Shown piece by piece: positions 4,763 to 51,039 of a DNA stretch of 64,000 nucleotides. The stretch covers positions 1-64,000 of the IMG/VR virus record IMGVR_UViG_3300028454_001165. One strand, written 5' to 3'. This DNA comes from a virus (Duplodnaviria; Heunggongvirae; Uroviricota; Caudoviricetes). The notes beneath the pieces were generated by a model. That model worked only from the letters and a program-made list of their open reading frames with translations, made no database searches and was not told where the DNA came from. A program made the translations under genes and the position numbers. How positions within the stretch are numbered: position 1 is the stretch's first letter; each line of letters begins with the position of its first letter.

Positions 4763-4921
4763 GAAATCACCTCGTATGATATTTGGATTTGCCTATCGGC
4801 GGAGGCATTATACCAAAACGGAGAAGAATTGTCAAGAGGATTCTAAAGGATTTGACGCGAAATCTACATCTATAATAATGGAAAACTCGCCAACAAAGAG
4901 TATCTATGAAAGGAAAAGGAT

Positions 4922-5170: not shown

Positions 5171-5278
5171 CAGCCCCTCTTCTCTTCTGCCTGATAAAAG
5201 TTTATCATGGGGAAAGCGCGTCTCAAACGGAGGCGGACTGCTTTCCCTTTATTTTTTTGCTCAGAAAGGAGACACAAC

Positions 5279-6025
5279 ATGAGCAAAGCAAAAAATCTGA
5301 TCCGGAAGATCCTTCCGACGGTATTGACTGTCATAGGAGCCGGAGCAACTGTCGCAGCAACTGTGCTCGCGGCAAAAGAGGGGCCAAAATTTGAAAGGGC
5401 TCTTAAAGAAAAGGAGATGACGGCAAAGGAAAAGATTGTCGCGGGAGTGAAGATCTTTGCACCGGCGGCCGGATGCGCTGCGGTTTCAATTGCCTGTACT
5501 GTCGGCGCGCATTGCATGGATCTTCACACGCAGGCCTCTATTACGGGCGCATATATCGCCGTTCAGGAGGCTTATAAGAAGTACCGGGCCAAAAATGAGG
5601 AACTGAACGGTCCGGAAGCAGACCAGAAAATCCTCACAGAGATCATGACGGAAGAAGTCCCGGAAGAGATCCGCGAAAGGATTGGCAACGAACCAATGCT
5701 GAAATTCCATGATTCCGTCAGCGGTCAGGACTTTTACAGTACAATGGCGAATGTGATTCAGGCAGAATACAACGTCAACAAGATGATAACTACACTTGGA
5801 GCGTGCAAGGAGAATGACTGGCTTGAGTTTCTGGATATTGCAAAAGTAGCTGGCGGGGATGATCGCGGATGGTCATCTGATATGCTTTGCGACTTATACA
5901 GCGAATGGTGGCTTGACTTTGCGCATTATCCGTCAGTTGATCTGGATAACGAAGAGACTGTCATCATTGTGCCGGACGTAGATCCGTCAGATGGCTATTT
6001 GAGTAATTACGGCCTCGACTGCTGA
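5279..6025 (+). CDS. membrane protein, paralog family A (249 aa)
   Basis: AAAGGAGA RBS. N-terminal TM segment, Lys/Glu linker, second hydrophobic segment (AGCAAVSIACTVGAH). Architecture shared with the 7130 and 8565 genes. Confidence 0.6.
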   Translation: MSKAKNLIRKILPTVLTVIGAGATVAATVLAAKEGPKFERALKEKEMTAKEKIVAGVKIFAPAAGCAAVSIACTVGAHCMDLHTQASITGAYIAVQEAYKKYRAKNEELNGPEADQKILTEIMTEEVPEEIRERIGNEPMLKFHDSVSGQDFYSTMANVIQAEYNVNKMITTLGACKENDWLEFLDIAKVAGGDDRGWSSDMLCDLYSEWWLDFAHYPSVDLDNEETVIIVPDVDPSDGYLSNYGLDC

Positions 6026-7129: not shown

Positions 7130-7945
7130 ATGAGTAAAACAGAAAGATTTGTTGAAGCAATGGCAAGAGGCCTGAAAAAGAGCTGGCCCAAGATTGCTGT
7201 TATCGCAGGAGGGGCTTTGCTGGCGATCGGCGGGTATAAAGCCGGGCTTGAGGTCCCTCGGTATGAGAAAGAGATCAGGGAAAAGGAGAAGGCATCCGAA
7301 GAGAAACTGAAAAAGACGGAAAAAGCGAAGATTGCCGCAAAGCATTTTGTCACTCCCGTGTGCATGGCAGCAGCAGGCGGAATGCTTCTCGTGGCCTCTA
7401 TCTGCGAGAACGACAGGCGTACAGCGATTGGCAGCACGGCGGTGGCAGCTCTTGAAGCGACATCTAAAACCTTTGCCGATTATAAGGAAGCGACGAAGGA
7501 GGTCGCCGGGGAAGAGACGGAAAAAGAAATCCGGAAGAAAGTCAAGGAAAAGCGTCTGGAGAATACGCCTTCCGTACAGGACCCACCGTTCGATAAGGTC
7601 CCTCCGAGTATGCAGGATATGTACTGGTGCTATGACCTGGCATTTGGGGGCGAGCCTTTTCTGACAACAAAGTACAAGCTGGAAAAAGCTGAAAATGAAA
7701 TCCAGAAACAGGTCCTGACCGGAGAAGAAGTCACGCTCAATGAAGCCTATTATATTCTCGGGATGAATCCGGTGAAAATGGGAGAGTCATACGGTTGGAA
7801 ATATGACCCGGAGCATCCGTCAAGCGGCACTGTGGATCTTGATATTTCTACAACGGAAAAGAACGGTGTGCCCGTGTTCTCGATTCTTCCCAATGCAAAT
7901 CTGATTGGCAAAGGCTTTTATGAAATTTCGAACTACGGTTTCTGA
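7130..7945 (+). CDS. membrane protein, paralog family A (271 aa)
   Basis: RBS GAAAGGAGAA. Same N-terminal TM / Lys-Glu linker / second hydrophobic segment as 5279 and 8565. C-terminal ESYGWKYDP motif. Confidence 0.6.
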   Translation: MSKTERFVEAMARGLKKSWPKIAVIAGGALLAIGGYKAGLEVPRYEKEIREKEKASEEKLKKTEKAKIAAKHFVTPVCMAAAGGMLLVASICENDRRTAIGSTAVAALEATSKTFADYKEATKEVAGEETEKEIRKKVKEKRLENTPSVQDPPFDKVPPSMQDMYWCYDLAFGGEPFLTTKYKLEKAENEIQKQVLTGEEVTLNEAYYILGMNPVKMGESYGWKYDPEHPSSGTVDLDISTTEKNGVPVFSILPNANLIGKGFYEISNYGF

Positions 7946-8564: not shown

Positions 8565-9491
8565 ATGAATCTCAAAAACATCGGAAAAGGCATTGGCGAC
8601 TTCGGGAAGAAGATCGCTTTTTCCGCACGGAAACATTCCCCGGAACTCTTAACCGGAGGCGCGATCGCATTAGGAATCGGAACAGTCATCGCAACGTGGT
8701 TCGCGGCAAGAAAAACGGACAAAGCTCTCGAAGAGCCGAAGAAGATCATCAAAACGGCAAAAGAGATGCCCGTCAGCGAGTCCTATACGGAGGCAGACCG
8801 TAAGCATGACATCTGGCTCGGATATAAAAAAGGCGCCGTGCAGATCATAAAACTGTACGGACCGGTCACGCTTATGGGCGCGTCATCGATTGCCTGCATA
8901 CTCGGTTCTCACAGAATCCTGTCCAATCGCAACGCCGGTCTGATCGCGGCGAACAGTATCCTGTCGAAGGAATTCAGCGATTACCGGGATAAGGTGATCG
9001 AGAAGTATGGACGCGAGGAGGACTACAACCTGCGCTTCGCGGACAAAATGGAGACTGCCGAAGCAACTCTCAAAGAAGAAAACGGCGAAGAGAAAACGGT
9101 CACGGTTGAGAAGGCGAAGGAAGGGTATCAGCTCGACACGTTTTCGCGGTGTTTCGACGATACAAATCCGTGCTGGAAAAGGGATACACAGTACAATGCG
9201 ACGTTCCTCAAACAAATCATGTCGCAGATGACGGATAAGCTTCGGGCGGAACGCGTGCTTTGTCTGAACGAGGTGTATGATGCTCTCGGATTCGACAAAA
9301 CACAAGCTGGCTTTGAGTACGGATGGATCTGCAAGCCCGGTCAGGAGATGGAGGCATACGTGGACTTCGGAATCTATGACATGAACAAAGAAAGTGTCCG
9401 GGAATTCATCTACGGTCACAACAACAGTATCTGGCTGGACTTCAATTGCTCGAAGATCATCTGGGCTGAGACTCCGTTCAGGAAGGTGTGA
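8565..9491 (+). CDS. membrane protein, paralog family A (308 aa)
   Basis: RBS GAAAGGAGC. TM / linker / TM architecture. C-terminal FEYGWICKPG motif. Confidence 0.6.
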   Translation: MNLKNIGKGIGDFGKKIAFSARKHSPELLTGGAIALGIGTVIATWFAARKTDKALEEPKKIIKTAKEMPVSESYTEADRKHDIWLGYKKGAVQIIKLYGPVTLMGASSIACILGSHRILSNRNAGLIAANSILSKEFSDYRDKVIEKYGREEDYNLRFADKMETAEATLKEENGEEKTVTVEKAKEGYQLDTFSRCFDDTNPCWKRDTQYNATFLKQIMSQMTDKLRAERVLCLNEVYDALGFDKTQAGFEYGWICKPGQEMEAYVDFGIYDMNKESVREFIYGHNNSIWLDFNCSKIIWAETPFRKV

Positions 9492-10691: not shown

Positions 10692-11012
10692 ATGAGTGAT
10701 GAAAAAATCGTCAAAGTGCTTGTGCGCATGGACGGAATTCCGATGGCTGCTCGACAGGACAATCGTGATATTCTGAAAATCATCCGGAAGCAGAAAAAGC
10801 AAATCAGAGGGCTGAAAGGCTTTGTCTTCGCACTGATCGTCGGAGGAGCGGTCCTTGCTGCCGAACTTGCAGAAAGAAAACGGAGCGAAAATTACCTGCA
10901 AAGCAAGATCGACAGTCTGAACGAAAAGGTGGACGATCTTCAGAACCGTATGCCGGAGAGCAACGTGGATACCCACGACGAAGCAAACATCGGAGGAGTC
11001 AGTGATGCGTAA
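10692..11012 (+). CDS. hypothetical protein with central TM helix and coiled coil (106 aa)
   Basis: GAAAGGAGAAG RBS. Stop overlaps the start of the replication gene (TAATGG). Confidence 0.5.
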   Translation: MSDEKIVKVLVRMDGIPMAARQDNRDILKIIRKQKKQIRGLKGFVFALIVGGAVLAAELAERKRSENYLQSKIDSLNEKVDDLQNRMPESNVDTHDEANIGGVSDA

Positions 11013-14000
11013 TGGCAGACTTCTTCAAAGTATTCACACGGTCGCCGAAGCGAGGACATGTTGAAATCTACCCGGAGTTTATTATCCGCAGCCCAAGCCA
11101 GGATCTGATGATCAAAGGCGGAGACTTCTATGCGGTCTGGGTCGAAGAACGCGGGCTTTGGTCCACAAGCGAACAGGATCTGATCAATCTTGTAGATCGG
11201 GAGCTTTATCAATATGCGGAAGAGTACGAGAAAAACTCGCCAGATGACATCGTGCATGTTCTGTGCATGAAGTATTCCTCCACCGGAACTACGGATCGAT
11301 GGCATAAGTATTGCCAGAAGCAGATGCGGGACTCCTATCATCCGCTTGACGAAAAGCTGGTCTTTTCCAATACGGAGGTCTCCAAGAGCGATTATGCTTC
11401 AAAGAGACTTCCGTATCCGCTGGAAGCCGGAGAGTGTCCTTCTTGGGATCAGTTCATGTCCGTTTTATATTCTCCCGAGGAGAGGCACAAAATCGAATGG
11501 GCGATCGGAGCCGTCGTGTCAGGCGATTCAAAGGACATTCAGAAGTTTATGGTGTTCTACGGTGATCCGGGGACCGGGAAATCTACCGTGTTAGACATCA
11601 TCATGCTTCTGTTTGCCGGGCACTACTGCACGTTCGACGCGAAGGCCCTCGGCAATCCGAACAGCACGTTTGCGCTCGAACCGTTCAAAGCCAATCCGCT
11701 TGTGGCGATCCAGCAGGACGGAGATCTCAGCCACATCGAGGATAATACCCGGCTGAACTCCATCGCCTCACACGATGAGATGACGGTGAACGAGAAGCAC
11801 AAGTCTTTATATTCCAACCGGTTCAACTGCTTCATGTTCATGGGCACGAACAAGCCCGTAAAGATCACGGACGCAAAATCCGGTATAATCCGGCGTCTGA
11901 TCGACGTATCGCCGACAGGAAACAAACTGCCGAGACGGGAATACGACAAACTCCGTTCTCAGGTCAAGTTTGAACTCGGAGCGATCGCAAAGCGGTGTCT
12001 GGACATCTATCTCGACGATCCGCATTTTTATGACAATTACATCCCGCTCAAGATGATGGGAGCCTCCAATGACTTCTACAATTATGTTTTGGATTCCTAT
12101 TCGGTATTCGAGCGGGAAGACGGGGTTTCGCAGAAAGCGGCGTGGGAGATGTACCGGACATACTGCGAAGAGGCGCGGGTTCCGTATCCGCTGTCGCTTC
12201 GGGTCTTCAAAGAAGAGCTGAAAAGCTACTTCAAGGAGTTCAAGGAGCGGATCAGCACGGAAGACGGCGGCCGCGTCCGAAACTGGTACGGCGGTTTTCG
12301 AAAAGAGAAATTTGTTCGGGAGGACTTTTCCGAAAAATCTCATGAGAAGACGGATCCTTCCTGCTGGTTCGTTCCGGCTCCGCGAACATCGCTCTTTGAT
12401 ATTTTGGGCGCGGACTATCCTGCCCAATACGCCAGCGAGGAAGGGATACCCAGACGGCGCTGGGTCAATGTTACGACAAAACTGAAAGATCTGGACACAT
12501 CACAGCTTCACTACGTCAAGGTTCCGATCAACCACATTGTGATCGATTTCGATATTCCGGATGAGCACGGCAGCAAAAGCCTCGAAAAGAATCTGGAAGC
12601 GGTATCGCGGTGGCCTCCTACCTACGGAGAGCTGTCGAAAAGCGGGCAGGGCATTCATCTTCATTATATTTATAAGGGAGATCCGAAACAGCTCAGCCAC
12701 GTTTACGACGACCGGATCGAGATCAAGGTGTTTGACGGAAATATGACGCTGAGACGGAAGCTTACGAAGTGCAACGATCTTCAGATAGCAGAGATCAGCT
12801 CAGGTTTACCGCTGAAAGGAGAAGACAAAATGGTAAACACCGAGACTGTGAAGAACGAGAAGGCGATCCGAACTCTGATCAAGAGGAATCTATGCAAGGA
12901 GTATCATCCCGGAACGAAGCCGAGCGTGGATTTCATCAAGAAGATTCTGGACGACGCCTATTCCAGCGGCGTGCGCTATGACGTGAGCGACATGTTCAAT
13001 CCCGTGCTGGCCTTTGCCACGAACAGCACGCATCACGCCGAATACTGCACGAAGCTGGTTTCCGAGATGCACTTCCGCTCTGAGGAGGAACCGACGCCGG
13101 GATTCCTCGAAAAAGTCGAAAATATGGGCAAAAATGATATTTTGATATTTTTCGACGTGGAGGTTTTCAAGAATCTTTTCGTGATCTGTTGGAAAGCTGC
13201 CGGGGCGGATCAACCGATCATGAAGATGATCAATCCGACGCCGAAGGAAGTGGAGGCTCTGACAAGGTGGAAGCTGATCGGATTCAACTGCCGTCAGTAC
13301 GACAACCATATTCTCTATGCGAGAATCATGGGGTACACGAACGAGCAGCTCTACAATCTGTCACAGTCCATTATCGGCTCGGAGAAAGGAAATCGGAACC
13401 GGGGCATGTTCGGCAACGCCTACAACTTATCCTATACGGATATTCTGGACTTCTCGTCTGAGAAAAAATCCCTGAAGAAATTTGAGATCGATCTCGGGAT
13501 TCACCATCAGGAGCTCGGTTTCGAATGGGATCAGCCTGTTTCGGAGGAGTTGTGGGAAAAGGTCGCCGAGTATTGCGCGAACGACGTGATCGCAACGGAA
13601 GCGGTCTGGAACGCACGGCAGGCGGATTTTATGGCGCGGCAGATTCAGGTGGAGCTTGTCAAGGCTTTGCACGGGATTACGGGCGTTTCGGTCAATGACA
13701 CGACAAACTCCCTGTCGGAGAAGATCATATTCGGCACGGAGAAAAATCCTCAGCGGCAGTTCAATTACCGCGATCTCTCAAAACCGGTTCCATGGACGGA
13801 ATATACGGAATACCGGAAGCGATTCGGAGACAGGTATACGTTCCATGTCTTCGACGACCACGGCCTTCCGACGTATGAAATCTACACCGGCGAGGGATGC
13901 GTCGTCCTGCCTGACGGATATTCCATTCTCCCATTCTTTCCCGGATATACGTTTGAGTTCGGTAAATCTGTGTATATGGGAGAGGAGATAGGAGAAGGAG

Positions 14001-15208
14001 GGCGTGTCTACGCGGAACCTGGCATTCATGAGAATGTCTGGGATGGGGACATCGCTTCCCAGCACCCGCACAGCGTGATCGCAGAATGCCTGTTCGGGCC
14101 GAAGTACACGGGAATCTTCGAGGAGATCGTGGAGGCGCGCGTCGCCATCAAGCACAAGGACTTTGAGAAAGCCGGGTCCATGCTGAACGGCGTGCTGAAG
14201 CCGTGGCTCACGGAAGAACATGCTGCCGGTCTTGCGCAGGCTCTGAAAATCGTCATCAATTCCATTTACGGGCTGACCTCAGCGGGATTTACAAACCGCT
14301 TCCGGGATGAGCGCAACGTAGATAACATTGTGGCGAAACGCGGAGCTCTGTTTATGACGCTGCTCAAATCCGAAGTGCAGAAGCGCGGATTCACGGTAGC
14401 GCACATCAAGACGGATTCCATCAAGATCGAGAACGCGACGGAGGAGATCCGCAACTTTGTTGTGAAATTCGGACGCGAATACGGATACGATTTCGAAACG
14501 GAGGCAGAATTCGATAAGTTCTGTCTTGTGAACGACGCCGTATACGTGGCGCGGTACAAGGAAGCCCTGAAAGACAAAAAGACCGGAAATGATATTTGGT
14601 GGACGGCCACCGGGACGCAGTTTCAGGTGCCCTATGTCTTCAAAACTTTGTTCTCCGGGGAAGAGCCGGTCTTTGAGGACTTCTGCGAAACAAAATCCGT
14701 TGCGAAGGGGGCAATCGTCATCGATATGAATGAGACCCTTCCGCAGCTCAGCGCGGCAGAGGAAAAGGAACTGATCGAGCTGCAAAAAGCGTACTCCGTA
14801 TCCGATCCTCCGCTTGAAACGGACATGGCTAAGCTCGTAAAGAAATTCAAACTATCCCCGGAAGAGATCGCATCGCGCTATGAAGACCTGAAAAAGCGGG
14901 AGGCAGAAGCGCACAATTATATTTTCGTCGGCAGGGTCGGACAGTTTTGTCCTATTGTGTCCGGCGGAGGAGGCGGGGTACTCTATCGGAATGCGGACGG
15001 CAAGTATTATGCTGTCAGCGGGACGAAAGGCTACCGCTGGCTGGAATCGGAGATGGTAAAGACTCTGGACAAAGCAGATCTCATTGACCGGAGCTTTTAT
15101 GATGCTCTTGCGAAAGATGCTATTCATACCATCAACGAAATCGGTCAAAAATGCGGCTGGGGCGGTTACAGGAAGCTTGTCGGGCATAATGCGGATGATG
15201 CTGACTAG
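11012..15208 (+). CDS. tripartite replication protein: SF3 (D5/P4-like) helicase + AEP primase + family-B DNA polymerase with 3'-5' exonuclease
   Basis: SF3 helicase Walker A FYGDPGTGKST and motif C NCFMFMGTNKP. AEP primase hhhDhD (IVIDFDIPDE) and sGxGxHhhY (SGQGIHLHYIY). DEDDy exonuclease motifs (ILIFFDVEVF; YCANDVIA). Family-B polymerase motif A (DGDIASQHPHS), motif B (KIVINSIYGLT) and motif C (HIKTDSIKIE). Confidence 0.85.
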   Translation: MADFFKVFTRSPKRGHVEIYPEFIIRSPSQDLMIKGGDFYAVWVEERGLWSTSEQDLINLVDRELYQYAEEYEKNSPDDIVHVLCMKYSSTGTTDRWHKYCQKQMRDSYHPLDEKLVFSNTEVSKSDYASKRLPYPLEAGECPSWDQFMSVLYSPEERHKIEWAIGAVVSGDSKDIQKFMVFYGDPGTGKSTVLDIIMLLFAGHYCTFDAKALGNPNSTFALEPFKANPLVAIQQDGDLSHIEDNTRLNSIASHDEMTVNEKHKSLYSNRFNCFMFMGTNKPVKITDAKSGIIRRLIDVSPTGNKLPRREYDKLRSQVKFELGAIAKRCLDIYLDDPHFYDNYIPLKMMGASNDFYNYVLDSYSVFEREDGVSQKAAWEMYRTYCEEARVPYPLSLRVFKEELKSYFKEFKERISTEDGGRVRNWYGGFRKEKFVREDFSEKSHEKTDPSCWFVPAPRTSLFDILGADYPAQYASEEGIPRRRWVNVTTKLKDLDTSQLHYVKVPINHIVIDFDIPDEHGSKSLEKNLEAVSRWPPTYGELSKSGQGIHLHYIYKGDPKQLSHVYDDRIEIKVFDGNMTLRRKLTKCNDLQIAEISSGLPLKGEDKMVNTETVKNEKAIRTLIKRNLCKEYHPGTKPSVDFIKKILDDAYSSGVRYDVSDMFNPVLAFATNSTHHAEYCTKLVSEMHFRSEEEPTPGFLEKVENMGKNDILIFFDVEVFKNLFVICWKAAGADQPIMKMINPTPKEVEALTRWKLIGFNCRQYDNHILYARIMGYTNEQLYNLSQSIIGSEKGNRNRGMFGNAYNLSYTDILDFSSEKKSLKKFEIDLGIHHQELGFEWDQPVSEELWEKVAEYCANDVIATEAVWNARQADFMARQIQVELVKALHGITGVSVNDTTNSLSEKIIFGTEKNPQRQFNYRDLSKPVPWTEYTEYRKRFGDRYTFHVFDDHGLPTYEIYTGEGCVVLPDGYSILPFFPGYTFEFGKSVYMGEEIGEGGRVYAEPGIHENVWDGDIASQHPHSVIAECLFGPKYTGIFEEIVEARVAIKHKDFEKAGSMLNGVLKPWLTEEHAAGLAQALKIVINSIYGLTSAGFTNRFRDERNVDNIVAKRGALFMTLLKSEVQKRGFTVAHIKTDSIKIENATEEIRNFVVKFGREYGYDFETEAEFDKFCLVNDAVYVARYKEALKDKKTGNDIWWTATGTQFQVPYVFKTLFSGEEPVFEDFCETKSVAKGAIVIDMNETLPQLSAAEEKELIELQKAYSVSDPPLETDMAKLVKKFKLSPEEIASRYEDLKKREAEAHNYIFVGRVGQFCPIVSGGGGGVLYRNADGKYYAVSGTKGYRWLESEMVKTLDKADLIDRSFYDALAKDAIHTINEIGQKCGWGGYRKLVGHNADDAD

Positions 15209-15280: not shown

Positions 15281-15808
15281 ATGAATGAAGTCAAGTACAC
15301 CATCCTCGGCGACAACAAGCTGAAAATCGAGAATCTTTCCAATCGTAACATTATCTACCGGAACTTCTCCGGTCGGACGAGCCAGTACAACAAAAACGGC
15401 GATCTGAAATTCACCATCGTGATCGGAGATCAGGACGCCGCGCAGATGCTTTCTTCCTATGGGTGGAACGTAAAGGTGAAGCCTCCGAGAAACGAAGGCG
15501 AGGAACCCTTCTGCACGCTGGATGTGAAGATCCGTCTGGATCTCGACTGGGCGAGACCGAAGATCAAGCAGTTCACCCGCGGCGGTTCCGTCTGGATCGA
15601 CGCGAGCAACATCAAGAATTTCGACGACGCAGAGTTCGAGACGGTCGATCTGGTTTTGAGACAGTACGCATGGTCGAACGGACGCGGCGAATCCGGTATT
15701 TCTGCGCAGCTTTCCGAGATGTACGCACGGATCGCGGAAGGCGTTCTCGAAGCCAAGTGGGCGGAAGAGGAAGGCCCCGGAGAGGATGCGCTTCCGTGGG
15801 AGAACTGA
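15281..15808 (+). CDS. hypothetical protein (175 aa)
   Basis: RBS AAAAGGAG. No recognisable domain. Confidence 0.55.
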   Translation: MNEVKYTILGDNKLKIENLSNRNIIYRNFSGRTSQYNKNGDLKFTIVIGDQDAAQMLSSYGWNVKVKPPRNEGEEPFCTLDVKIRLDLDWARPKIKQFTRGGSVWIDASNIKNFDDAEFETVDLVLRQYAWSNGRGESGISAQLSEMYARIAEGVLEAKWAEEEGPGEDALPWEN

Positions 15809-15847: not shown

Positions 15848-16204
15848 ACATTTATATTTTTGAGAGGTGCTTACGGATAAAAAGCGAATACGCTTGACGG
15901 GCTTTACCCTCGGATCAACAAGGACAAGAATATCGTGTACCTGCCAAATGGAATTTGGGCGGACTGGAGTCGATACGAAAAATGTCGAAGATGCGATCGA
16001 CTATTTCAATGACACCAAGTACGTTGAAAATCTTGGGATCGGCATCGGCATGATTTTAGGATCTGTATTGAGGGACTGCTCTCATCGTTCACAGATTCAA
16101 GAAGCACGGCAAGGAAAAGCATGAGGAATCCAAAGAGAGCGGGGAGGCGGCTGAATAAGCCCCTCTTCCTCTTTTTGGTATTGATTTTGAAAAGGAGAAA
16201 AGTT

Positions 16205-18280
16205 ATGGCATTTCACGATTTCAACAATAGATTAATTGAGAATTTCAAAAAGCGCATCGCTGAGAAAGAACTGTTCGAGGTTGATGCAGATAGGGATAGT
16301 TTGTGGTATTTATACATAAAAAGCTTTCCTGCTGCTGCAAATCCGATCTACCGTGTACGGACAAAGCATGACTGTGCCTGCTGCAGGCAGTTCATTCGGG
16401 AGGCCGGTCGAATCGTTTGGATTGATGATGACTTGATCATTCACAGTATTTTTGAGTTTGATGCACATGACGCGGATTATCAGATCGTTATTGATACACT
16501 GAATAACTATGTGTTGGGCCGCAACATCATAGGCAAATACCTGTATGAGAGAAAGAGGATCGGCACACCCGTATCCAGAGAATGCCTCGATGACGGAACA
16601 ATAATATCCTATGAACACTTTTCGATAGATCTGCCTGATTCGGCCGTATTCTGCAATACATCCAGTACAACTATTGACACAGAAAGAGGACGCTTTAGAG
16701 ATCGTAGAAATGTATTTAAGCGATCTCTTGATGAGATCTCAGTTGATGCGCTCAATACTGTTTTGGAACTGATTCAAACAAATGCTCTGTATAAGGGTGG
16801 AGAATGGGGGAAGCTTATCAAACAATTCCTTTACTATAAGAATCAGTACGATACATTGGGATATGATCGAAGCAAGCAAGAAGCTTACTGCTGGGCATAC
16901 GCATCAAAAGTAGGAGATGTACTCGGAAAAATCAGAAATCATAGTATTGGAAAGCTTCTCGTTGATATTTCAGAAGGAGTCGAACTGGATGAGGCAGTTA
17001 GAAGATACGAAGTTGTCGTAGCTCCAATGAACTATAAACGTCCGAAAGCCATTTATACCAAGCGAATGCTGGAAGAAGCGCAGAAAACCGTTACGGAACT
17101 CGGTTATATGGAGTCTCTTCCGAGACGCTTTGCTACATTAGATGACATTACAGTCAATGATATTCTGTTTTTCAATAAGGATACGGCAAGAAGGATTTCC
17201 GGCAATGTGTTCGATGAAATGAAAACGGAAATAGCAACCGATCCTAAGAGATTTAGTCGAATACAAGAAGTCACCATGAATCAGTTCATTCATGACATCT
17301 TACCTGATGCGAAAGAAGTTTATGCTCTTGCAGAAAACCGTTTGGCTCCGAATATGGTATCGCTGATCGCACCTGTTAACAAGGAGTCAAAAAGCATGTT
17401 CAAGTGGGGGAATGGTTTTTCGTGGGCTTATTCTGGAAACATCACAGACAGCAACATTCGCGAAAACGTAAAACTGGCCGGGGGAAAAGTTGAAGGCGCT
17501 CTTCGATTCAGCATCCAGTGGAATGATATTCATTCTGACTATAACGATCTGGATGCCCATTGTGAAATTGCGTTCTCTGATCGAGGCTATGGTCATATCT
17601 ATTATCGCTCAAAGGTTGACCGCATCACCGGTGGAAGTCTTGACGTTGACATTATTAACCCCATACCCGGAAAACCTGCCGTTGAGAACATCATCTTTCC
17701 AAGCAAAGAGATTCTTGAAAACCGAGTGAAAGAAATGATACTGTATGTTTACTGCTTTACCTATCGTGGCGGAGAGAACGGGTTCAGAGCTGAAATTGAG
17801 TATGATGGACAAATTCACAACTATGATTTCAGAAAACCGCTTCATCAAGGCGAACATATTCCTGTGGCAAGACTTAAGTATAAGACTAATGGGGATTTTG
17901 CCTTTGAGGAGTTTCTGCCTTCAAGCACGATAAATCAGGAGATCTGGGGGATTAAAGCCCAGACATTTGTACCTGTTACGGTCATTATGACATCTCCAAA
18001 CTGGTGGAACGGAGAAGAAGGCATCGGTCATAAGCATTGGTTTTTCATGCTGAAAGATTGCGTAAATCCAGAAAAACCAAATGGCTTTTACAATGAGTTT
18101 CTGAAGCAGGAGCTTGTAGAACACAAAAGGGTATTTGAAGCGTTAGGTGCCAAGATGGCCATTCAAGACGTAAACGATCAATTGTCAGGCTTTGGGTTCA
18201 GCGACACGAAACGTAACAACGTTATTGTGAAAGTCAGAAGTATCAACAACACCGAAAGAGTCTACAAAATTAAATTCTAA
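16205..18280 (+). CDS. large hypothetical protein (691 aa) in a low-GC island
   Basis: AAAAGGAGAAAAG RBS. Roughly 42% GC against 55-62% in the flanks. No recognisable catalytic motif. Beta-rich C-terminal half. Confidence 0.65.
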   Translation: MAFHDFNNRLIENFKKRIAEKELFEVDADRDSLWYLYIKSFPAAANPIYRVRTKHDCACCRQFIREAGRIVWIDDDLIIHSIFEFDAHDADYQIVIDTLNNYVLGRNIIGKYLYERKRIGTPVSRECLDDGTIISYEHFSIDLPDSAVFCNTSSTTIDTERGRFRDRRNVFKRSLDEISVDALNTVLELIQTNALYKGGEWGKLIKQFLYYKNQYDTLGYDRSKQEAYCWAYASKVGDVLGKIRNHSIGKLLVDISEGVELDEAVRRYEVVVAPMNYKRPKAIYTKRMLEEAQKTVTELGYMESLPRRFATLDDITVNDILFFNKDTARRISGNVFDEMKTEIATDPKRFSRIQEVTMNQFIHDILPDAKEVYALAENRLAPNMVSLIAPVNKESKSMFKWGNGFSWAYSGNITDSNIRENVKLAGGKVEGALRFSIQWNDIHSDYNDLDAHCEIAFSDRGYGHIYYRSKVDRITGGSLDVDIINPIPGKPAVENIIFPSKEILENRVKEMILYVYCFTYRGGENGFRAEIEYDGQIHNYDFRKPLHQGEHIPVARLKYKTNGDFAFEEFLPSSTINQEIWGIKAQTFVPVTVIMTSPNWWNGEEGIGHKHWFFMLKDCVNPEKPNGFYNEFLKQELVEHKRVFEALGAKMAIQDVNDQLSGFGFSDTKRNNVIVKVRSINNTERVYKIKF

Positions 18281-21020: not shown

Positions 21021-21124
21021 AGGCGCTTCTTGTTCTCTTCTCCTTTGTTGCAATTTTCGGAGCGCTGACATTCGCGGCGGCATGGATCACATATACCGCC
21101 GTTTCATGGCTTATGAGGGTATGA
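20984..21124 (+). CDS. putative 46-aa membrane peptide (overlapping frame)
   Basis: AAAGGAG RBS 5 nt upstream of ATG 20984. Hydrophobic LLVLFSFVAIFGALTFAAAWITY. Confidence 0.3.
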   Translation: MRKIGRIICNAIEALLVLFSFVAIFGALTFAAAWITYTAVSWLMRV

Positions 21125-21129
21125 TATGC

Positions 21130-22359
21130 ATGGACATACAGAAAGCAATGTCCGCTGCTGACGGGCTCGACGCATACCAGATCGATGCGATAAATCAAAT
21201 GAAGAACGGCTGTATTCTCTGCGGCGGCGTCGGTTCCGGGAAATCCCGGACTGCTCTTGGATATTACTATAAAGACTTTGAGCAGATCCGGGAGAGGAGC
21301 GGACACGAAATGCCGCTTATCATTATCACGACCGCGAAGAAGCGCGATACGGGGGAATGGCAGGAGGAATGCAGACTGTTCGGGATTCCTTTCACCGGTG
21401 ATCTGATCGTTGACTCGTGGAATAATATCGGAAAATACGTCGGCGAGATCGGCGCGTTTTTTATATTCGATGAGCAGCGGGTCGTCGGCAGCGGGGCATG
21501 GGTCAAATCTTTTCTGAAAATCGTCCGGGCCAACCGATGGATCCTTCTGTCGGCTACGCCCGGCGATACATGGAAGGACTATATACCGGTCTTCATCGCC
21601 AATGGGTTTTACAAGAATCGGACTGAATTTACCCGTGAGCACATCGTCTACTCCCAGTTCACAAATTTTCCGAAGATCGATCGATACCTTGAGACGGCAA
21701 AGCTCATGCGGCTGCGGGATTCCATTCTCGTTCGGATGGACTATGTCAAGCACACGAAGGACAGACATGAGGACATCTGGTGCCAGTATGATATTCCGGG
21801 GTACCGGTCGATCATGCGGAATATGTGGAACCCGTGGACGGACGAACCGATCGATACGGCGGGAGCGCTATGCTATGCGCTGAGAAGAATCTGCTATTCG
21901 GACAAATCGCGTCTGGAGGCGCTTCAAAAGCTGCTTGGCATTCATCCGAAAGCAATTATATTTTACAATTATGATTTTGAACTTGATCTTCTGCGGGTAT
22001 TCTGTACGGAACACGGGATCGTCTGGGGAGAATGCAATGGCCACCGGCACGACGAGGTTCCCATGGGTGACCGATGGGTCTACCTTGTGAACTTCCAGAG
22101 CGGAGCCGAAGGATGGAACTGTATTGCCACGGACACATTGATATTCTATTCCGAGAACTATTCTTACCGGATCATGCAGCAGGCGGCCGGACGGATTGAC
22201 AGACGGAACACGCCGTTTGATATTTTGTACTACTATCACCTGAAGTCCCATTCGTCAATCGAATTGACGATCATGCGGACGCTGAGGGACAAGAAGGATT
22301 TCAACGAAGGCGGGTTCTACCGAAAAATCGCGGGATCGCGGGAAAAACATGGTTCTTAA
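21130..22359 (+). CDS. SF2 (DEAD/DEAH-like) helicase (409 aa; alternative start 21121)
   Basis: Walker A CGGVGSGKS. DEAD-like IFDEQR. Motif III LLSATPG. Motif VI QQAAGRIDR. Confidence 0.7.
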   Translation: MDIQKAMSAADGLDAYQIDAINQMKNGCILCGGVGSGKSRTALGYYYKDFEQIRERSGHEMPLIIITTAKKRDTGEWQEECRLFGIPFTGDLIVDSWNNIGKYVGEIGAFFIFDEQRVVGSGAWVKSFLKIVRANRWILLSATPGDTWKDYIPVFIANGFYKNRTEFTREHIVYSQFTNFPKIDRYLETAKLMRLRDSILVRMDYVKHTKDRHEDIWCQYDIPGYRSIMRNMWNPWTDEPIDTAGALCYALRRICYSDKSRLEALQKLLGIHPKAIIFYNYDFELDLLRVFCTEHGIVWGECNGHRHDEVPMGDRWVYLVNFQSGAEGWNCIATDTLIFYSENYSYRIMQQAAGRIDRRNTPFDILYYYHLKSHSSIELTIMRTLRDKKDFNEGGFYRKIAGSREKHGS

Positions 22360-23000: not shown

Positions 23001-23072
23001 TATTTTCGGGACGCGAAAAAACCATGTCTCTTAATGGATAACTATTCTACAATCCACAAAGGAGACAAAAAC

Positions 23073-23633
23073 ATGAGGAATACGGTGAAAGAATTTTCCG
23101 ACCTGTTTTCATTGGTCAGCAGACTGATCGATTGCGTCAGCGGAGCGTTATTACGGACGCTTACCGCGATTGTGATCATCGGGAAGCTGTTCGTGAAACC
23201 GGTGGAGATTGCGATCGGCATTCTCAGGGATTTCGAGGCCAGAAGGGAAGAGAGAAGGTTAAAGAAAGCGAAGAGGAACGAGTCCGCAATGGGCTCCTCC
23301 TCTCCTTTTTTTGTGAAAGGAGAACACATGAAAGAAAAGGAAACCGCCATTATGATCCGCGCAAAATCCCCGACGATTATGCACCCGGAGAGACTTGACG
23401 ATATGAAGGCCATACTCCGGGAGCAGATCGCGGAGAAATACAAATGCGAAGAGATGATCAGCCATACGTATGAAGAAGGGCAATCCCGAATAATTCGTTT
23501 CTATATCTGCCGCAAAGGGGGACTCAAAAACAGTCTCCGGTACAGGTTGGAAAAAGATCTGGCGCGAATGAAGCGGCAATGGCTTCCGATGACCGGATAT
23601 GCGGTAATGATCGCAAGCGGGGCAAAACAATAA
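23073..23633 (+). CDS. hypothetical protein (186 aa; possibly two genes, internal RBS+ATG at 23328)
   Basis: CAAAGGAGACAAAAAC RBS before ATG 23073. A second AAAGGAGAACAC-ATG at 23328 is in the same frame without an intervening stop. Confidence 0.4.
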   Translation: MRNTVKEFSDLFSLVSRLIDCVSGALLRTLTAIVIIGKLFVKPVEIAIGILRDFEARREERRLKKAKRNESAMGSSSPFFVKGEHMKEKETAIMIRAKSPTIMHPERLDDMKAILREQIAEKYKCEEMISHTYEEGQSRIIRFYICRKGGLKNSLRYRLEKDLARMKRQWLPMTGYAVMIASGAKQ

Positions 23634-36663: not shown

Positions 36664-36912
36664 ATGGCAAAGATCAATGCGAAGGAAATCGGAATGGCGT
36701 GCCTGACCGGTGCGAAGAAGATCTGGAAGCCTTTAACGGGCGTTATGATCGCTGCGGGAGCGGTGATCGGAACGTACCTGCTGGGGAAAAAAGAACTCGA
36801 CGCGGAGGAGGCGGCGGAAAACGAGAACCTGCTCGCGGACGGAGCTGAAGAAGAAACGACTGACGAAGAAAGCAACGAGGAAGAATCCGAAGAGGAGGAC
36901 GACGCTGAATAA
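36664..36912 (+). CDS. small TM protein with poly-acidic tail (82 aa)
   Basis: AAAAGGAGTTTAGAACT RBS. TM GVMIAAGAVIGTYLL. Tail ...EEESEEEDDAE. The last codons and terminator are duplicated at 37435-37475. Confidence 0.5.
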   Translation: MAKINAKEIGMACLTGAKKIWKPLTGVMIAAGAVIGTYLLGKKELDAEEAAENENLLADGAEEETTDEESNEEESEEEDDAE

Positions 36913-36937
36913 GCGTCCCCTCTTTCTTTTTTTTTTT
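36895..36937 (+). terminator. terminator hairpin GACGC-tgaataa-GCGTC + T-run (duplicated at 37443-37479)
   Basis: Stop codon TAA sits in the loop. T10 run follows. Confidence 0.5.
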
Positions 36938-36959
36938 GTGTGAGGATTGATATTTTTTG

Positions 36960-37235: not shown

Positions 37236-37460
37236 ATGGGTCTTAATGGAGAACATCCAAAATTACTGAATGAAGGAGAAATAGAGATAAAAAGCTTGAA
37301 AAGTATCGTGCTTGGGAGTATCGGAGGCTTGGTGGGCGGGTTTACCGTTCTGCTATGGCTCTGGAGCAGACCGGACACGCTGACGGATGAGCTGAATGAA
37401 ATTCGCTCTGACATCAAAGCTTTGGAGGAATCCAAAAAGACGGAGGACGACGCTGAATAA
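37236..37460 (+). CDS. small TM protein with acidic C-terminus (about 75 aa; start ambiguous)
   Basis: Shares 5' flank and 3' end (EDDAE* plus terminator) with the 36664 cassette. TM helix IVLGSIGGLVGGFTVLLWLW. No clean RBS-ATG; the start may be the ATG inside the promoter-like motif or a downstream TTG/GTG. Confidence 0.3.
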   Translation: MGLNGEHPKLLNEGEIEIKSLKSIVLGSIGGLVGGFTVLLWLWSRPDTLTDELNEIRSDIKALEESKKTEDDAE

Positions 37461-37645
37461 GCGTCCCCTCTTTCTTTTTGCGGCGGGTGGGATTGATATT
37501 TCCGGGAATCGGGGGGGGGACGCGCAGATCGCATGGACTGTAATGAGAGAAGAACGAATATGCGCGTTCTGTTTCTCTTGCGTTTGATCCGCAAAAAAAA
37601 AGAGCCCGCGTTTCGGCACAGGCCCTTTTGTCCGCTTGCGCGGTA

Positions 37646-39199: not shown

Positions 39200-39765
39200 G
39201 CTTCCAGTTCAACCGGCACGCGGAGATCGAGGGCAAGCACGCTTTTCTCTCGGCGTCGAAGTATCATTGGATCCGGTACGATGAAGCGAAGATGGCCGAC
39301 GTATTCCGCAATTTCTTCGCGGCGGAGCAGGGAACGCGGATGCACGATTTCGCGTCCCATTGCATTCGGATGGGACAGAAGCTTCCGCGGACGAAGCAGA
39401 CGCTCAACATGTTCGTCAACGACGCGGTGGAGTTCGGGATGTCCTCGGAGGTGGTGCTGTATTACAGCCGCAACTGTTTCGGGACGACGGACGCGATCGG
39501 TTTCCGGAATGGGGTGCTCCGCATTCACGACTACAAGAGCGGTGTGATCCCGGCGCATTTCGAGCAGCTCTTCGTCTACGCGGCTCTGTTTTGTCTGGAA
39601 TACGACGTTGCGCCGGAGGATATTCAGATCGAGCTGCGGATCTATCAGTCGGGTGAGATTCAGAAATGCAGGCCGGAGCCGGAGGTGATCCGGGAGGTCA
39701 TGCGGAAAGCGGTGGATTTTGACATGCTGATCGAATCCATCAAAGAGGAAGAGCGGGCCAATTGA
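39196..39765 (+). CDS. putative PD-(D/E)xK-family nuclease (189 aa)
   Basis: ATGA coupling to the VRR-NUC gene. TDAIGF...LRIHDYKSG resembles a D...(D/E)xK core. Low certainty. Confidence 0.35.
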   Translation: MSFQFNRHAEIEGKHAFLSASKYHWIRYDEAKMADVFRNFFAAEQGTRMHDFASHCIRMGQKLPRTKQTLNMFVNDAVEFGMSSEVVLYYSRNCFGTTDAIGFRNGVLRIHDYKSGVIPAHFEQLFVYAALFCLEYDVAPEDIQIELRIYQSGEIQKCRPEPEVIREVMRKAVDFDMLIESIKEEERAN

Positions 39766-39848
39766 TATTTGAAATAGGGGGTGGGATCGCCGGATGTGAC
39801 CCCCTCTTCTTTTTCATTGATATTTGCAAAGAAAGGCAGATTACAGCC

Positions 39849-42668
39849 ATGGATACGAAAAACGACGCGATCTACATCGATGAGGAAACCGGCGAGGTCT
39901 TGGATGACATGGATATTCTCGAGCACTACGGGATGCCCCGGCGGTCCGGGAGGTACCCGTGGGGTTCCGGGGACAATCCTTACCAGCGGACGGGGGATTT
40001 CATTTCCCGCGTGAACAAGATGAAGGCCGACGGCATGTCGGAGGGGGAGATCGCCCGCGAGCTTGAGATTGTGAACTACCGCGGCGAACCGTCCCCATCC
40101 CGGCTCAGAACGCAGCTCTCCGTCGCCAAGAATTACCGCCGCTCGCTTCTTGTAGAGCAGGCGAAGGACATGAAGGCGAAGGGTCTCGGAGCTACGGAGA
40201 TCGGCGAGAAGATGGGGCTGAACGAGTCTACGGTCCGCTCCCTTCTCAATACGAAGGCCGAAGCCCGGATGCTCGCGGCGTCCAACACGGCGAAATACCT
40301 CAAAGAGGAGATCGACAAGAACGGCATGATCGACGTTGGTTCCAGCGTGGAGCGAAAGCTCGGCGTGACGCGGACGACGCTCGACAACGCGCTGATGATC
40401 CTCGAAATGGAGGGATATCCGACTTACGGAGGACGGGTCCCTCAGGTGACGAACAAGGGGCAGATGACGACGCTCAAGGTGGTCTGCCCGCCGGGCGCTG
40501 AGAAAAAAGATATTTACGATTATGCGAAGATCCACCAGCTCGGAGACAGGATCTCGTCCGACGGAGGCGAGACCTTCGATCCGGTCTGGGTCTATCCGAA
40601 GTCGCTGGATTCGAAGCGGGTGCAGATCCGTTACGCGGAAGAAGGCGGCAAGGACAAGGACGGTGTGGTTGAGATCCGGCCGGGTGTGGAAGACGTTTCC
40701 CTCGGCGGCTCCTCTTACGCGCAGGTCAGGGTTCTGGTGGACGGGACGCATTACATCAAGGGCATGGCGGTTTACGGGGATCCGGCCGACTTCCCGGAGG
40801 GGGTCGACATGATCTTCAACACGAACAAGCACGTCGGGACGCCGATGCTGTCGGATGATCCGAACGCGAAGTGCGTGCTCAAGCCCATCGATAAGGCGAA
40901 TCCGACGAACCCCTTCGGGTCGCTGATCAAGGACGGCATCGTCGATCCTGACGACCCTTCGAAGAAGGAGGGCGGACAGCGGTACTACTACGACGAGAAC
41001 GGCGAGAAGCAGCTCTCCGTCATCAACAAGCGGGCCGACGCCGGGGATTGGAACGAATGGAGCCACGATCTCCCCTCGCAGTTCCTTTCGAAGCAGAACA
41101 ACAAGCTCGTGAAGCAGCAGCTCGATCTTGCGAAGATCGACAAGCAGAGCGAATACGAGGAGATCTGCGCATTGACGAATCCGACGGTGAAGAAGCATCT
41201 CCTTCTGAATTTCGCGAACGACTGTGATTCGGCGGCGGTGCATCTCAAGGCGGCCGCCCTTCCGAGGCAGCGGTATCAGGTGATCCTTCCCCTGACGACG
41301 CTCGGGGACGACGAGGTCTATGCTCCGAACTACAAGCCTGGGGAGAAGGTCGCGCTGATCCGGTATCCGCACGGGGGGACGTTCGAGATCCCGATCCTGA
41401 AGGTGAACAATAAGAATGCGGAGGGGAGGCGGGTGATCGGGCCCAATCCGCCGGATGCGGTCGGCATCAACGCGAAGGTCGCGGAGCGGCTCTCCGGGGC
41501 GGATTTCGACGGGGACACGGTCATGGTGATCCCGCTCTCCGGCAAGGCGAATATCACCTCTACGCCGACGCTTCCGGGGCTCGAAGGCTTCGATCCGAAG
41601 GAGCAGTACGGCGGGAAACCGGCAGGGACCTTCAAGCAGATGACGAAGCCCGGCACGCAGATGGAGATGGGGAAGGTTTCAAATCTCATCACCGACATGA
41701 CGATCGGGGGGGCCGGTCCGGAAGAGCTGGCAAAGGCGGTTCGCCACTCCATGGTGGTCATCGACGCATACAAGCACAAGCTGGATTACAAGCAGTCCGA
41801 AATCGACAACGATATCCCCGCCCTCAAACGCAGATGGCAGGGGCATACGACGGAGGACGGGCGGTATTCCACGGGGGCCGCCACGATCATTTCGCAGGCG
41901 AAGGGGCAGGCGAGCGTTCCGAAATACCGGGGGGTCCAGAAGATCGATCCCGAGACGGGCAAGCTCTACTGGGACAGCCGGAAGACGCCCGAGACCTATG
42001 TGGACAAGAACGGTAAGACGCAGACGCGAATGGTCCGCACCACGAAAATGGCGGCCACGGACGACGCGATGAAGCTGGTTTCGGAAGGCAGGACGCAGGT
42101 CGAGCTGCTGTACGCGGATTACGCGAACACGATGAAGTCTCTGGCGAACGACGCGCGAAAAGAATACGTTTCCGCAGGAAGGATCGAGCGCAGTTCCGAA
42201 GCCGCGCAGAAATATGCGGCCGAAGTGGCAAATCTTGAAGCGCAGCTGAACGTCGCAAAGCTCAACGAGCCGCGCGAACGTCAGGCGCAGCTGAACGCCA
42301 ACGCGAACATCAAGCTCTGGCTGGAGAAGAATCCCGACGCGACGAACGCCGAGATCAAGAAGCAGTCTCAGCGGGAACTCTCGAACGAGCGCGCAAAGCT
42401 CGGCGCGAAGAGAAGTCCGGTGAAGATCAGCCCCGAACAATGGGAGGCGATTCAGGCCGGAGCGGTTTCGGAAAACGTGCTGACGAACATCCTCAAGTAC
42501 ACGGACATTGATGTCGTCCGCGGCTACGCGACGCCTCGCGCTTCCAAAGAGCTGAGCGCGGTGAAGCAGGCGAGGATCCACGCGCTGCAGAACTCCGGCT
42601 ACACGAATCAGGACATCGCAGACGCGCTCGGCGTTTCGGTTTCGACTGTGCTGAACTATCTTGACTGA
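39849..42668 (+). CDS. large multi-HTH protein (940 aa)
   Basis: AAAGAAAGGCAG RBS. Three HTH-like segments (GMSEGEIARELEI; GLGATEIGEKMGLNESTVRSLLN; C-terminal GYTNQDIADALGVSVSTVLNYLD). N-terminal HYGMPRRSGRYPWGSGDNPYQ resembles the N-termini of the 45556 and 50539 products. Confidence 0.6.
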   Translation: MDTKNDAIYIDEETGEVLDDMDILEHYGMPRRSGRYPWGSGDNPYQRTGDFISRVNKMKADGMSEGEIARELEIVNYRGEPSPSRLRTQLSVAKNYRRSLLVEQAKDMKAKGLGATEIGEKMGLNESTVRSLLNTKAEARMLAASNTAKYLKEEIDKNGMIDVGSSVERKLGVTRTTLDNALMILEMEGYPTYGGRVPQVTNKGQMTTLKVVCPPGAEKKDIYDYAKIHQLGDRISSDGGETFDPVWVYPKSLDSKRVQIRYAEEGGKDKDGVVEIRPGVEDVSLGGSSYAQVRVLVDGTHYIKGMAVYGDPADFPEGVDMIFNTNKHVGTPMLSDDPNAKCVLKPIDKANPTNPFGSLIKDGIVDPDDPSKKEGGQRYYYDENGEKQLSVINKRADAGDWNEWSHDLPSQFLSKQNNKLVKQQLDLAKIDKQSEYEEICALTNPTVKKHLLLNFANDCDSAAVHLKAAALPRQRYQVILPLTTLGDDEVYAPNYKPGEKVALIRYPHGGTFEIPILKVNNKNAEGRRVIGPNPPDAVGINAKVAERLSGADFDGDTVMVIPLSGKANITSTPTLPGLEGFDPKEQYGGKPAGTFKQMTKPGTQMEMGKVSNLITDMTIGGAGPEELAKAVRHSMVVIDAYKHKLDYKQSEIDNDIPALKRRWQGHTTEDGRYSTGAATIISQAKGQASVPKYRGVQKIDPETGKLYWDSRKTPETYVDKNGKTQTRMVRTTKMAATDDAMKLVSEGRTQVELLYADYANTMKSLANDARKEYVSAGRIERSSEAAQKYAAEVANLEAQLNVAKLNEPRERQAQLNANANIKLWLEKNPDATNAEIKKQSQRELSNERAKLGAKRSPVKISPEQWEAIQAGAVSENVLTNILKYTDIDVVRGYATPRASKELSAVKQARIHALQNSGYTNQDIADALGVSVSTVLNYLD

Positions 42669-45407: not shown

Positions 45408-45555
45408 TTTTGGTTACCTTGAAAAGTATGTTGAGATTTTTGTTGTTTGAAGATCTTAATTGGTCAGAAGCCTCTTATGTTTACTGCATATACTTAGCAA
45501 ATGAATTGTGTTTATGCTTACAGGTATTTTGTATCCTCATGAAAGGAGGGTTTTT

Positions 45556-46596
45556 ATGGATAAACAATTCGATACTTTGGAGCACCATGGCATCCTCGGG
45601 ATGAAGTGGGGCGTGAGAAGATACCAGAATGAGGACGGATCTCTTACTGAAGCCGGTCGAAAGCGGTATGGTGTCGAGGAAAGTTCTTCAGAATCGGAGA
45701 CGAGGTCTTCACAGGACACCTCGCAGGGGCAGACTTGGAGTCCGGCATCGACTGTGAAGTCAGTCTCCGAGATGTCTGACGAAGAACTGCGGAACGCTCT
45801 GAATCGGATGAATATGGAACGACAGTACAATGAGATGACACGTTCCAGAGAAAATCAAAATACGACTCAGAATAATGCAACGGTTATCGAACGGCCGAAA
45901 ACGACCGGAGAGATGACGAATGCTGAATTGCAGAGTTATATTAACAGACTCGAGTTGGAAAAGCGGTATGCTACTTTGACAGCACCTCCTCCCAAACAGG
46001 TCACAAAAGGCGAACAATTTGTCAAGGATGTCCTGAAGCCTGCGTTCAACGAAGTTGCTAAGCTCTATGTTGTCAATACCTTGAAGAACTTTGTCGGGCT
46101 GAACAACAGCGACAATGGAGGAAAGGACAAGGGTAACGATAATTCCGATAGCGGAAAGAAGAAAAAAACAGGTAATCAGGATAGTCAGTATCAATCCATC
46201 AAGAAGGAACTTGACTCTCTCAAGGCCATGATTTCCTCTTCGAACCAGACCAAGAAAGAGGCAACTGGACAGAACGCGTCCAAATCTGGAGACAGATCCG
46301 ACAATAAGACAGAGTCAGCGGCCAGATCAGAGACCAGAAATGAGAATCGTTCGGAAAGCAGGACCGCAAGCAATTCCTCTCATCGCGCCGATATTCTTCG
46401 CGCAGCCAGAGAGAATGTCAGAACGGCAAAGGAACAGGTAAACCAGAAGTCGAGTAACGATCGGTGGAGCAGTATTCTTAATTCATTAAATGCGCAGAAC
46501 CAGTTTTTGGATAATTCAATACAGAGTCAAAGGGCTCAGATGCAACGTCAAAGAGCTCAGAATTACTTAGACAGATACATTAGTAATCTTCCATAA
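45556..46596 (+). CDS. low-complexity S/T/N/Q/R-rich protein with N-terminal HHGILGMKWGVRRYQN motif (346 aa)
   Basis: GAAAGGAGGG RBS. N-terminal 40 aa nearly identical to the 50539 product. Internal repeated ELxxxxNRxxxExxY blocks. Confidence 0.6.
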   Translation: MDKQFDTLEHHGILGMKWGVRRYQNEDGSLTEAGRKRYGVEESSSESETRSSQDTSQGQTWSPASTVKSVSEMSDEELRNALNRMNMERQYNEMTRSRENQNTTQNNATVIERPKTTGEMTNAELQSYINRLELEKRYATLTAPPPKQVTKGEQFVKDVLKPAFNEVAKLYVVNTLKNFVGLNNSDNGGKDKGNDNSDSGKKKKTGNQDSQYQSIKKELDSLKAMISSSNQTKKEATGQNASKSGDRSDNKTESAARSETRNENRSESRTASNSSHRADILRAARENVRTAKEQVNQKSSNDRWSSILNSLNAQNQFLDNSIQSQRAQMQRQRAQNYLDRYISNLP

Positions 46597-50538: not shown

Positions 50539-51039
50539 ATGGAGCAAAATGTTTCAAACAATGCGAACGAATCTCTTCAGCATCACGGCATCCTCGGGAT
50601 GAAATGGGGCATTCGGCGATACCAGAATCCCGATGGGACTCTTACGGAAGCCGGGCGGAAAAGGCTGGATCAGAAAGACACGAAGTGGGCGCACAAACGC
50701 GAGGAGAAGATCTACAATCAGACTTACTCAAAGTCGCGCCGTGAGGTGAACAAGTTCGTCAAGGAACTCAACCGGCAGATAAGCCCGACGAATGCGAACG
50801 GACGGCTCTCGGCGACCTACGTCAATGCATACAACCAGAAGCTGGCCGAGATCATGAACAAGAACGTGAAGGAGATCCACGCCCCGTCCGGCAAAGTGGT
50901 CAAGTGGGTGGCAAAACGCGGAGAGGTCGGCGTTCACATGGCTCTGGCCGACGCAGGGTATGATCTGAGCCAGCTCAAACGCGGCGTGTACGGTTCCGGG
51001 CGGATCGCTTACCGGAAAACTTCGGTTGATGTCGGCTGA
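50539..51039 (+). CDS. protein with N-terminal HHGILGMKWGIRRYQN motif (166 aa)
   Basis: GAGAGGAGACG RBS. N-terminus paralogous to the 45556 product. Confidence 0.55.
   Translation: MEQNVSNNANESLQHHGILGMKWGIRRYQNPDGTLTEAGRKRLDQKDTKWAHKREEKIYNQTYSKSRREVNKFVKELNRQISPTNANGRLSATYVNAYNQKLAEIMNKNVKEIHAPSGKVVKWVAKRGEVGVHMALADAGYDLSQLKRGVYGSGRIAYRKTSVDVG

Follow-up and report, generated by a model that had tools for sequence, protein, structure and literature searches.

The window analysed here, 64,000 nt of a tailed-virus genome record (IMGVR_UViG_3300028454_001165, positions 1 to 64,000), encodes a 1398-residue protein in which a superfamily 3 (SF3) helicase, a predicted archaeo-eukaryotic primase (AEP), a 3'-5' exonuclease and a DNA polymerase of family B (PolB) follow one another in a single chain. 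The protein has the architecture of GP55 of Lactococcus phage 1706, is homologous to it, and conserves its catalytic and essential residues. We assign it, with a probability of about 0.93, as a functional four-in-one replicase of the HelPrimPolB type and an orthologue of GP55. This assignment is made because of the collinearity with GP55, the match to the PHROG family phrog_4210, the domain matches, and the invariance of the catalytic and mutagenesis-proven residues. The genomic context, with the gene set of phages FP_oengus and 1706 and of an actinophage supercluster, was also counted in its favour.

The ORF listing gives the gene as a single unbroken open reading frame (ORF) with an ATG start. 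The ATG shares bases with the stop codon that ends the ORF before it (TAATG), and about 12 nt 5' of the ATG is the sequence GGAGGAG. Because the N-terminal residues MADFF line up with the N-termini of the homologues, both in the BLASTP alignment with GP55 and in the family alignment, the start is considered to be called correctly. A preliminary description of this DNA had reported one 1398-residue ORF carrying eight motifs in the order helicase, primase, exonuclease and polymerase. The ORF is as described, and all eight motifs are found in the translation in that order: FYGDPGTGKST (residues 182-192), IVIDFDIPDE (509-518), SGQGIHLHYIY (544-554), FFDVEVF (713-719), YCANDV (854-859), DIASQHPHS (1013-1021), KIVINSIYG (1079-1087) and KTDS (1133-1136). 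The domain matches, the Foldseek comparison, the invariant motifs and the collinearity with GP55 support the domain order as well, and the idea of a minimal replisome in one protein agrees with the experiments on GP55 (PMC12205980).

The family to which the protein belongs is large. The profile of phrog_4210 ("DNA polymerase") covers residues 3-1379 with E=0, and a tblastn search against 50,697 phage records found matches in 391, of which 252 cover at least 80% of the replicase. These near-full-length homologues belong to cultured and uncultured phages and carry the annotation "DNA primase/polymerase". At least 8000 relatives, thousands of them metagenomic, are present in a large protein database, and a 1397-residue protein in public assemblies (P0001) is 99% identical. 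Therefore, with phrog_4210 spanning it, 252 near-full-length homologues and a 99%-identical public protein, the ORF is a real gene and neither a chance reading frame nor an assembly artefact. A joining of adjacent helicase-primase and polymerase genes by sequencing or assembly error was raised only for the unusual length of the ORF, and no support for it was found. The 252 phage genomes, which were sequenced independently, show the same single-ORF layout, as do thousands of metagenomic proteins, and GP55 was purified as one polypeptide (PMC12205980), making such an artefact next to impossible.

GP55 was cited as a fusion of SF3 helicase, AEP and PolB in 2016 by Kazlauskas et al. (PMC4889955), and in 2020 Kazlauskas et al. 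named the group HelPrimPolB (PMC7544198). Zhang et al. (2025) showed that purified GP55, which is mostly dimeric, has DNA polymerase, 3'-5' exonuclease, helicase and strand-displacement activities, the unwinding being dependent on UTP or dTTP (PMC12205980). GP55 also synthesises RNA primers, with GTP preferred for initiation, and a newly described four-helix domain, the alpha-helix domain (aHD), is essential for priming (PMC12205980). The preliminary description had regarded the fusion as unusual and worth structural or biochemical follow-up; however, this overlooks these publications from 2016, 2020 and 2025. The fusion is already known, its exemplar is biochemically characterised, and the window ORF is one more ordinary, divergent representative of this family, for which more than 1000 GP55 homologues have been noted, mostly from human-associated phages (PMC12205980).

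BLASTP aligned residues 3-1386 of the window protein collinearly with residues 2-1311 of GP55 at 37% identity (E=0). The mutagenesis-proven GP55 residues K189, D509, Y655, F667, D712, E714 and D949 correspond to K190, D514, Y656, F668, D715, E717 and D1013, all of them identical. Conservation was assessed in an alignment of 21 members with 40-81% identity to the window protein, taken from phages of Faecalibacterium, Lactococcus, Gordonia, Arthrobacter, Streptomyces and Curtobacterium and from metagenomic proteins. Every GP55 residue that is essential by mutagenesis is invariant across these members.

The helicase region is recognised by several profiles. Pfam DUF5906 matches residues 182-295 above its curated cut-off (E=5.8e-11), followed by a weak Pox_D5 match at 354-415. 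The NCBIfam model TIGR01613, for the helicase region at the C-terminus of P4-family primases, aligns at 139-389 (E=1.2e-14) and scores 54 bits against a curated cut-off of 108.7 bits, so that this match is sub-threshold. In addition, the SaPI5 primase-helicase structure 7ola matches residues 175-409 (E=1e-5), and PHROG primase-helicase families match residues 122-452. Residues G184, K190, T192, D236/D238, N280 and R294/R295 are invariant or nearly so.

Residues of about 470-605 probably form the AEP catalytic domain, an assignment that we hold with moderate confidence from the predicted structure. Foldseek comparison of the model with the PDB placed pRN1 or NrS-1 primase-polymerases at all of ranks 1-9, led by pRN1 3m1m (6e-4), 9aam and NrS-1 6jop. 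The Pfam Prim-Pol model matches this segment weakly in four of eight family members (best E=0.002). The residues D512/D514, S544-G-x-G-x-H549-x-H551 and E570 are invariant or nearly so. In a profile search of the PDB with the AEP segment, a lactococcin immunity protein appeared at E=0.15 and was dismissed as spurious. The adjacent aHD is modelled as four helices, and its residues Y656 and F668, the equivalents of GP55 Y655 and F667, are invariant in the family.

The exonuclease residues D715/E717, N759/Y763/D764 and Y854/D858 are likewise invariant or nearly so, as are D1013/S1016/H1018/P1019/S1021 of polymerase motif A and K1079/N1083/Y1086/G1087 of motif B. The polymerase part is matched by phrog_1252 (DNA polymerase, E=4.8e-44), and a profile built from eight diverse members detected in the PDB the E. 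coli Pol II (1.3e-7), the Pyrococcus abyssi PolB (1.5e-4), Pol alpha (1.7e-4) and also Pol zeta. No phi29-type polymerase was found by this profile at E<=1. Polymerase motif C reads H1131-x-K1133-T-D1135-S, with a lysine replacing the first aspartate. The motif A aspartate and the second motif C aspartate are the two metal ligands in family-B polymerases, and both of them (D1013 and D1135) are invariant here. The KTDS in place of the canonical DTDS might indicate a PolB that is catalytically dead, in which case the protein would be only a primase-helicase and its polymerase-like tail structural; we give this hardly any credence. The lysine is present in 21 of the 21 members, GP55 carries the same lysine (HVKTDS) and yet polymerises efficiently at 1.25 nM (PMC12205980), and the piPolBs, which are also without the first aspartate, are highly active (PMC7544198). 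Inactivation of the polymerase by KTDS was rejected on these grounds, and since the lysine is invariant across the family and found in the active GP55, we take it to be a family hallmark rather than a lesion.

Absence of the first motif C aspartate is also a feature of primer-independent PolBs (PMC7544198), and a kinship to self-priming or protein-primed polymerases had been proposed for this protein. According to such a view the polymerase would be piPolB- or phi29-like and the AEP-like region vestigial. We judge this very improbable, as the family shows no variation in AEP motifs I-III or in the residues of the aHD, and the polymerase profile finds the Pol II, archaeal PolB, Pol alpha and Pol zeta proteins named above. 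GP55 replicates single-stranded M13 DNA de novo; in this enzyme the D509A mutation abolishes primer synthesis, and de novo DNA synthesis requires nucleoside triphosphates (NTPs) (PMC12205980). Moreover, the published phylogeny groups HelPrimPolB, as a divergent lineage with divergent motif C and KxY motifs, with the primer-dependent PolBs of the EpsilonN-like clade (PMC7544198). The proposed kinship thus does not hold, and it is a separate AEP site that would prime. A search for terminal inverted or direct repeats found no inverted repeats of at least 40 nt within the window, whose ends may not be genome ends, and the phage encodes a large terminase. Given the lack of such repeats, the terminase and the intact primase, nothing seen here points to protein-primed replication, with no search made for a terminal protein gene.

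Based on GP55, we propose how the HelPrimPolB-type replicase of the window might work. The N-terminal SF3 (D5/P4-type) helicase region would unwind the duplex and drive strand displacement; in GP55 this region uses UTP or dTTP and mediates dimerisation. The AEP, together with the adjacent aHD, would make short RNA primers de novo at loosely specific template sites, as GP55 does starting preferentially with GTP. The C-terminal PolB would then extend these primers with dNTPs and proofread with the 3'-5' exonuclease that it carries. The two active sites, one for priming and one for extension, would be separate and may act in trans inside a dimer. By analogy, what holds for GP55 in its four activities, its nucleotide preferences and its dimeric state is expected to apply to the window protein as well.

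Several points weigh against this assignment. The identity to GP55, the characterised enzyme, is only 37%, and the window protein is known here from its sequence alone. A Pfam search with its own AEP segment gave no match, a family profile of this segment found no AEP among the PDB sequences, and the AEP fold rests on a model of moderate quality (mean pLDDT 68.5) and on Foldseek alignments with low TM-scores of about 0.2. The insertions at residues 926-975 and 1239-1303, which GP55 does not have, could alter the properties of the enzyme, and the N-terminal domain of about 105 residues is without an assigned role. This domain is confidently folded in the model, with D31, G36, F39, Y40, A41, W43, W50 and D62 invariant, and a search for structural neighbours detected none. 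The 926-975 insertion is conserved in a gut-metagenome clade, shorter in FP_oengus and absent from GP55 and the actinophage homologues, while the 1239-1303 insertion is present in only some members of the clade.

Possibly new are only these clade-specific polymerase insertions and the N-terminal domain. Neither the N-terminal domain nor the 926-975 insertion is addressed in the published GP55 work (PMC12205980). We tentatively raise, as an idea more doubtful than probable, that one of them is an undescribed functional module, for instance for origin or DNA binding, dimerisation or contact with a host factor; if so, the clade would be a mechanistic variant of the four-in-one replicase. It is striking that one polypeptide can unwind, prime, copy and proofread DNA, and the potential use of such an enzyme in isothermal amplification has already been raised and tested for GP55. 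The window ORF adds a divergent member from an uncultured, probably gut-associated phage, in which the strict conservation of the catalytic residues, the aHD residues and the lysine-containing motif C is seen again. In practical terms, it can be annotated as "HelPrimPolB-type helicase-primase-polymerase replicase" and offers a possible alternative enzyme for comparative biochemistry.

Table 1. Features of the replicase and selected neighbouring elements (window coordinates; domain limits approximate).
Feature	Window position	Strand	Residues	Basis or remarks
HelPrimPolB ("four-in-one") replicase gene, whole, as assigned	11012..15208	+	1-1398	ORF including stop codon; phrog_4210 E=0; GP55 37% identity
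N-terminal domain	11012..11326	+	~1-105	beta-rich, one long helix
D5/P4-type SF3 helicase with C-terminal Pox_D5-like region	11369..12346	+	~120-445	Pfam, NCBIfam, PDB, PHROG
Helicase motifs			Walker A G184-T192 (K190); Walker B D236/D238; sensor N280; Arg finger R294/R295	
Putative AEP (PriS-like / Prim-Pol) catalytic domain	12419..12826	+	~470-605	motifs, Pfam, Foldseek
AEP motifs			I D512-x-D514; II S544-G-x-G-x-H549-x-H551; III E570	
Alpha-helix domain (aHD)	12845..13081	+	~612-690	four helices in model; carries Y656 and F668
3'-5' proofreading exonuclease subdomain	13124..13711	+	~705-900	invariant motifs, n=21
Exonuclease motifs			Exo I D715/E717; Exo II N759/Y763/D764; Exo III Y854/D858	
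Family-B polymerase subdomain	13712..15205	+	~901-1398	family profile, phrog_1252, invariant motifs
Polymerase motifs			A D1013-xx-S-x-HP-x-S; B K1079-xxx-N-xx-YG; C H1131-x-K-T-D1135-S	
50-residue insertion 5' of motif A	13787..13936	+	926-975	alignment columns
Variable charged ~65-residue insertion, C-terminal polymerase part	14726..14920	+	1239-1303	alignment columns
Single-strand annealing protein (SSAP)	15281-15808			directly downstream of replicase
SF2 (superfamily 2) helicase	21082-22359			
Promoter-like motif copies, ~27 nt each	2340, 2949, 4156, 4856, 15814, 22337, 23012, 29790, 30854, 33132, 36595, 37224, 38348	+		

The window is a siphovirus-like tailed-phage genome or segment with nearly all genes on the + strand, and the phage is related to Faecalibacterium phage FP_oengus. 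Three phrog_2152 paralogues lie upstream of the replicase (5207-6025, 7130-7945 and 8565-9491, +), the counterpart of three FP_oengus DUF6353 genes in the same relative position. Just past the replicase/SSAP unit, a large conserved phage protein of 719 residues is encoded at 16121-18280 (+; phrog_1735, E=5e-234). The 968-residue product of 39762-42668 (+) matches phrog_4291 ("RNA-dependent RNA polymerase") with E=0 and has terminal helix-turn-helix matches; gp75 of phage 1706 bears the same annotation as this protein. It is a counterpart of the YonO-like single-subunit RNA polymerase, which has been proposed as a signature gene of the group of actinophages, Lactococcus and Faecalibacterium phages (bioRxiv 10.1101/842583). 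Genes for the large terminase (TerL), portal, protease and major tail protein are found in the window too, and its gene set is that described for the actinophage supercluster together with the Lactococcus and Faecalibacterium phages (bioRxiv 10.1101/842583). A DNA repair exonuclease-like gene (49461-50519, +; phrog_704, E=4.8e-46) is located between the large terminase and portal genes, an unusual site for a nuclease in a packaging module. The terminase and exonuclease genes are flanked by two ORFs (45508-46596 and 50539-51039) that share a 93-nt direct repeat of 76% identity (45570-45662 and 50568-50660, +), which encodes a common N-terminal peptide, HHGILGMKWG.RRYQN.DG.LTEAGR.

The motif CGCG-N6-MCAT-N4-YNNNATGGA (typical form CGCGAAAAAAACATGGGTCTTAATGGA) occurs in 13 copies, all on the + strand, where chance would give 0.14. 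All copies fall between 2 and 38 kb, in the non-structural half of the window, and usually lie 22-55 nt 5' of the start of the following ORF; a Shine-Dalgarno sequence often stands between the two. The motif looks like a family of phage-specific promoters, not of sigma-70 spacing, and either the YonO-like RNA polymerase or a sigma-like factor of the phage could use it. The position of the replicase gene between the copies at 4856 and 15814 suggests that it belongs to one transcription unit, about 11 kb long. Hairpins that resemble terminators, with T-runs after them, are present at 2028-2082, 2904-2958, 36894-36948 and 37442-37496 (+). Two of the hairpins pair with the two promoter-like copies at 36595 and 37224, whose sequences are 100% identical, which suggests that a small cassette (about 630 nt) has been duplicated. 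The called start ATG of the ORF at 23034-23633 (+) falls inside the promoter-like motif at 23012-23038; its true start is probably further downstream, past AAAGGAGA at ~23060.

The phi29 polymerase and the piPolB of pipolins are also family-B polymerases with a proofreading exonuclease, and piPolB shares the missing first motif C aspartate; however, they have no AEP domain, belong to another PolB clade and are primed by a terminal protein or by the PolB itself. Pas55 of Actinoplanes phage phiAsp2, cited beside GP55 as a fusion of SF3 helicase, DnaG primase and PolA (PMC4889955), is an analogous three-function fusion, whereas its DnaG and PolA are not homologous to the AEP and PolB of the window protein. 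The preliminary description had also drawn an analogy to the primase-polymerases of NrS-1-like phages. NrSPol of NrS-1 and ORF904 of pRN1 are structural relatives of the AEP by Foldseek and combine an AEP and an SF3-type helicase in one chain. In these proteins, however, the AEP is N-terminal to the helicase, a single AEP active site primes and polymerises with no PolB, and the accessory domain that helps in priming is a helix-bundle domain (HBD). The window protein has the helicase first, would elongate through a separate PolB and carries an unrelated aHD, and in domain order, HBD and single active site it departs from the NrS-1/pRN1 type of primase-polymerase. The nearest homologue from a cultured phage is FP_oengus gp28 (YP_009797554, "DNA polymerase" or "helicase/polymerase"), with 52% identity over 99% of the length. 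The neighbourhoods are syntenic: both replicase genes are preceded by three DUF6353-type paralogues and by small ORFs, and are closely followed by a recombination gene. However, gp28 has a short form of the 926-975 insertion and is without that at 1239-1303. Compared to GP55, the window protein is 81 residues longer, contains both polymerase insertions and is without an insertion that GP55 has near its C-terminus; it also comes from another lineage of phages, one nearer to the gut phage FP_oengus. Nevertheless, the two proteins share the same order of N-terminal region, SF3 helicase, AEP, aHD, exonuclease and PolB, and their catalytic residues are identical, including the HxKTDS of motif C.

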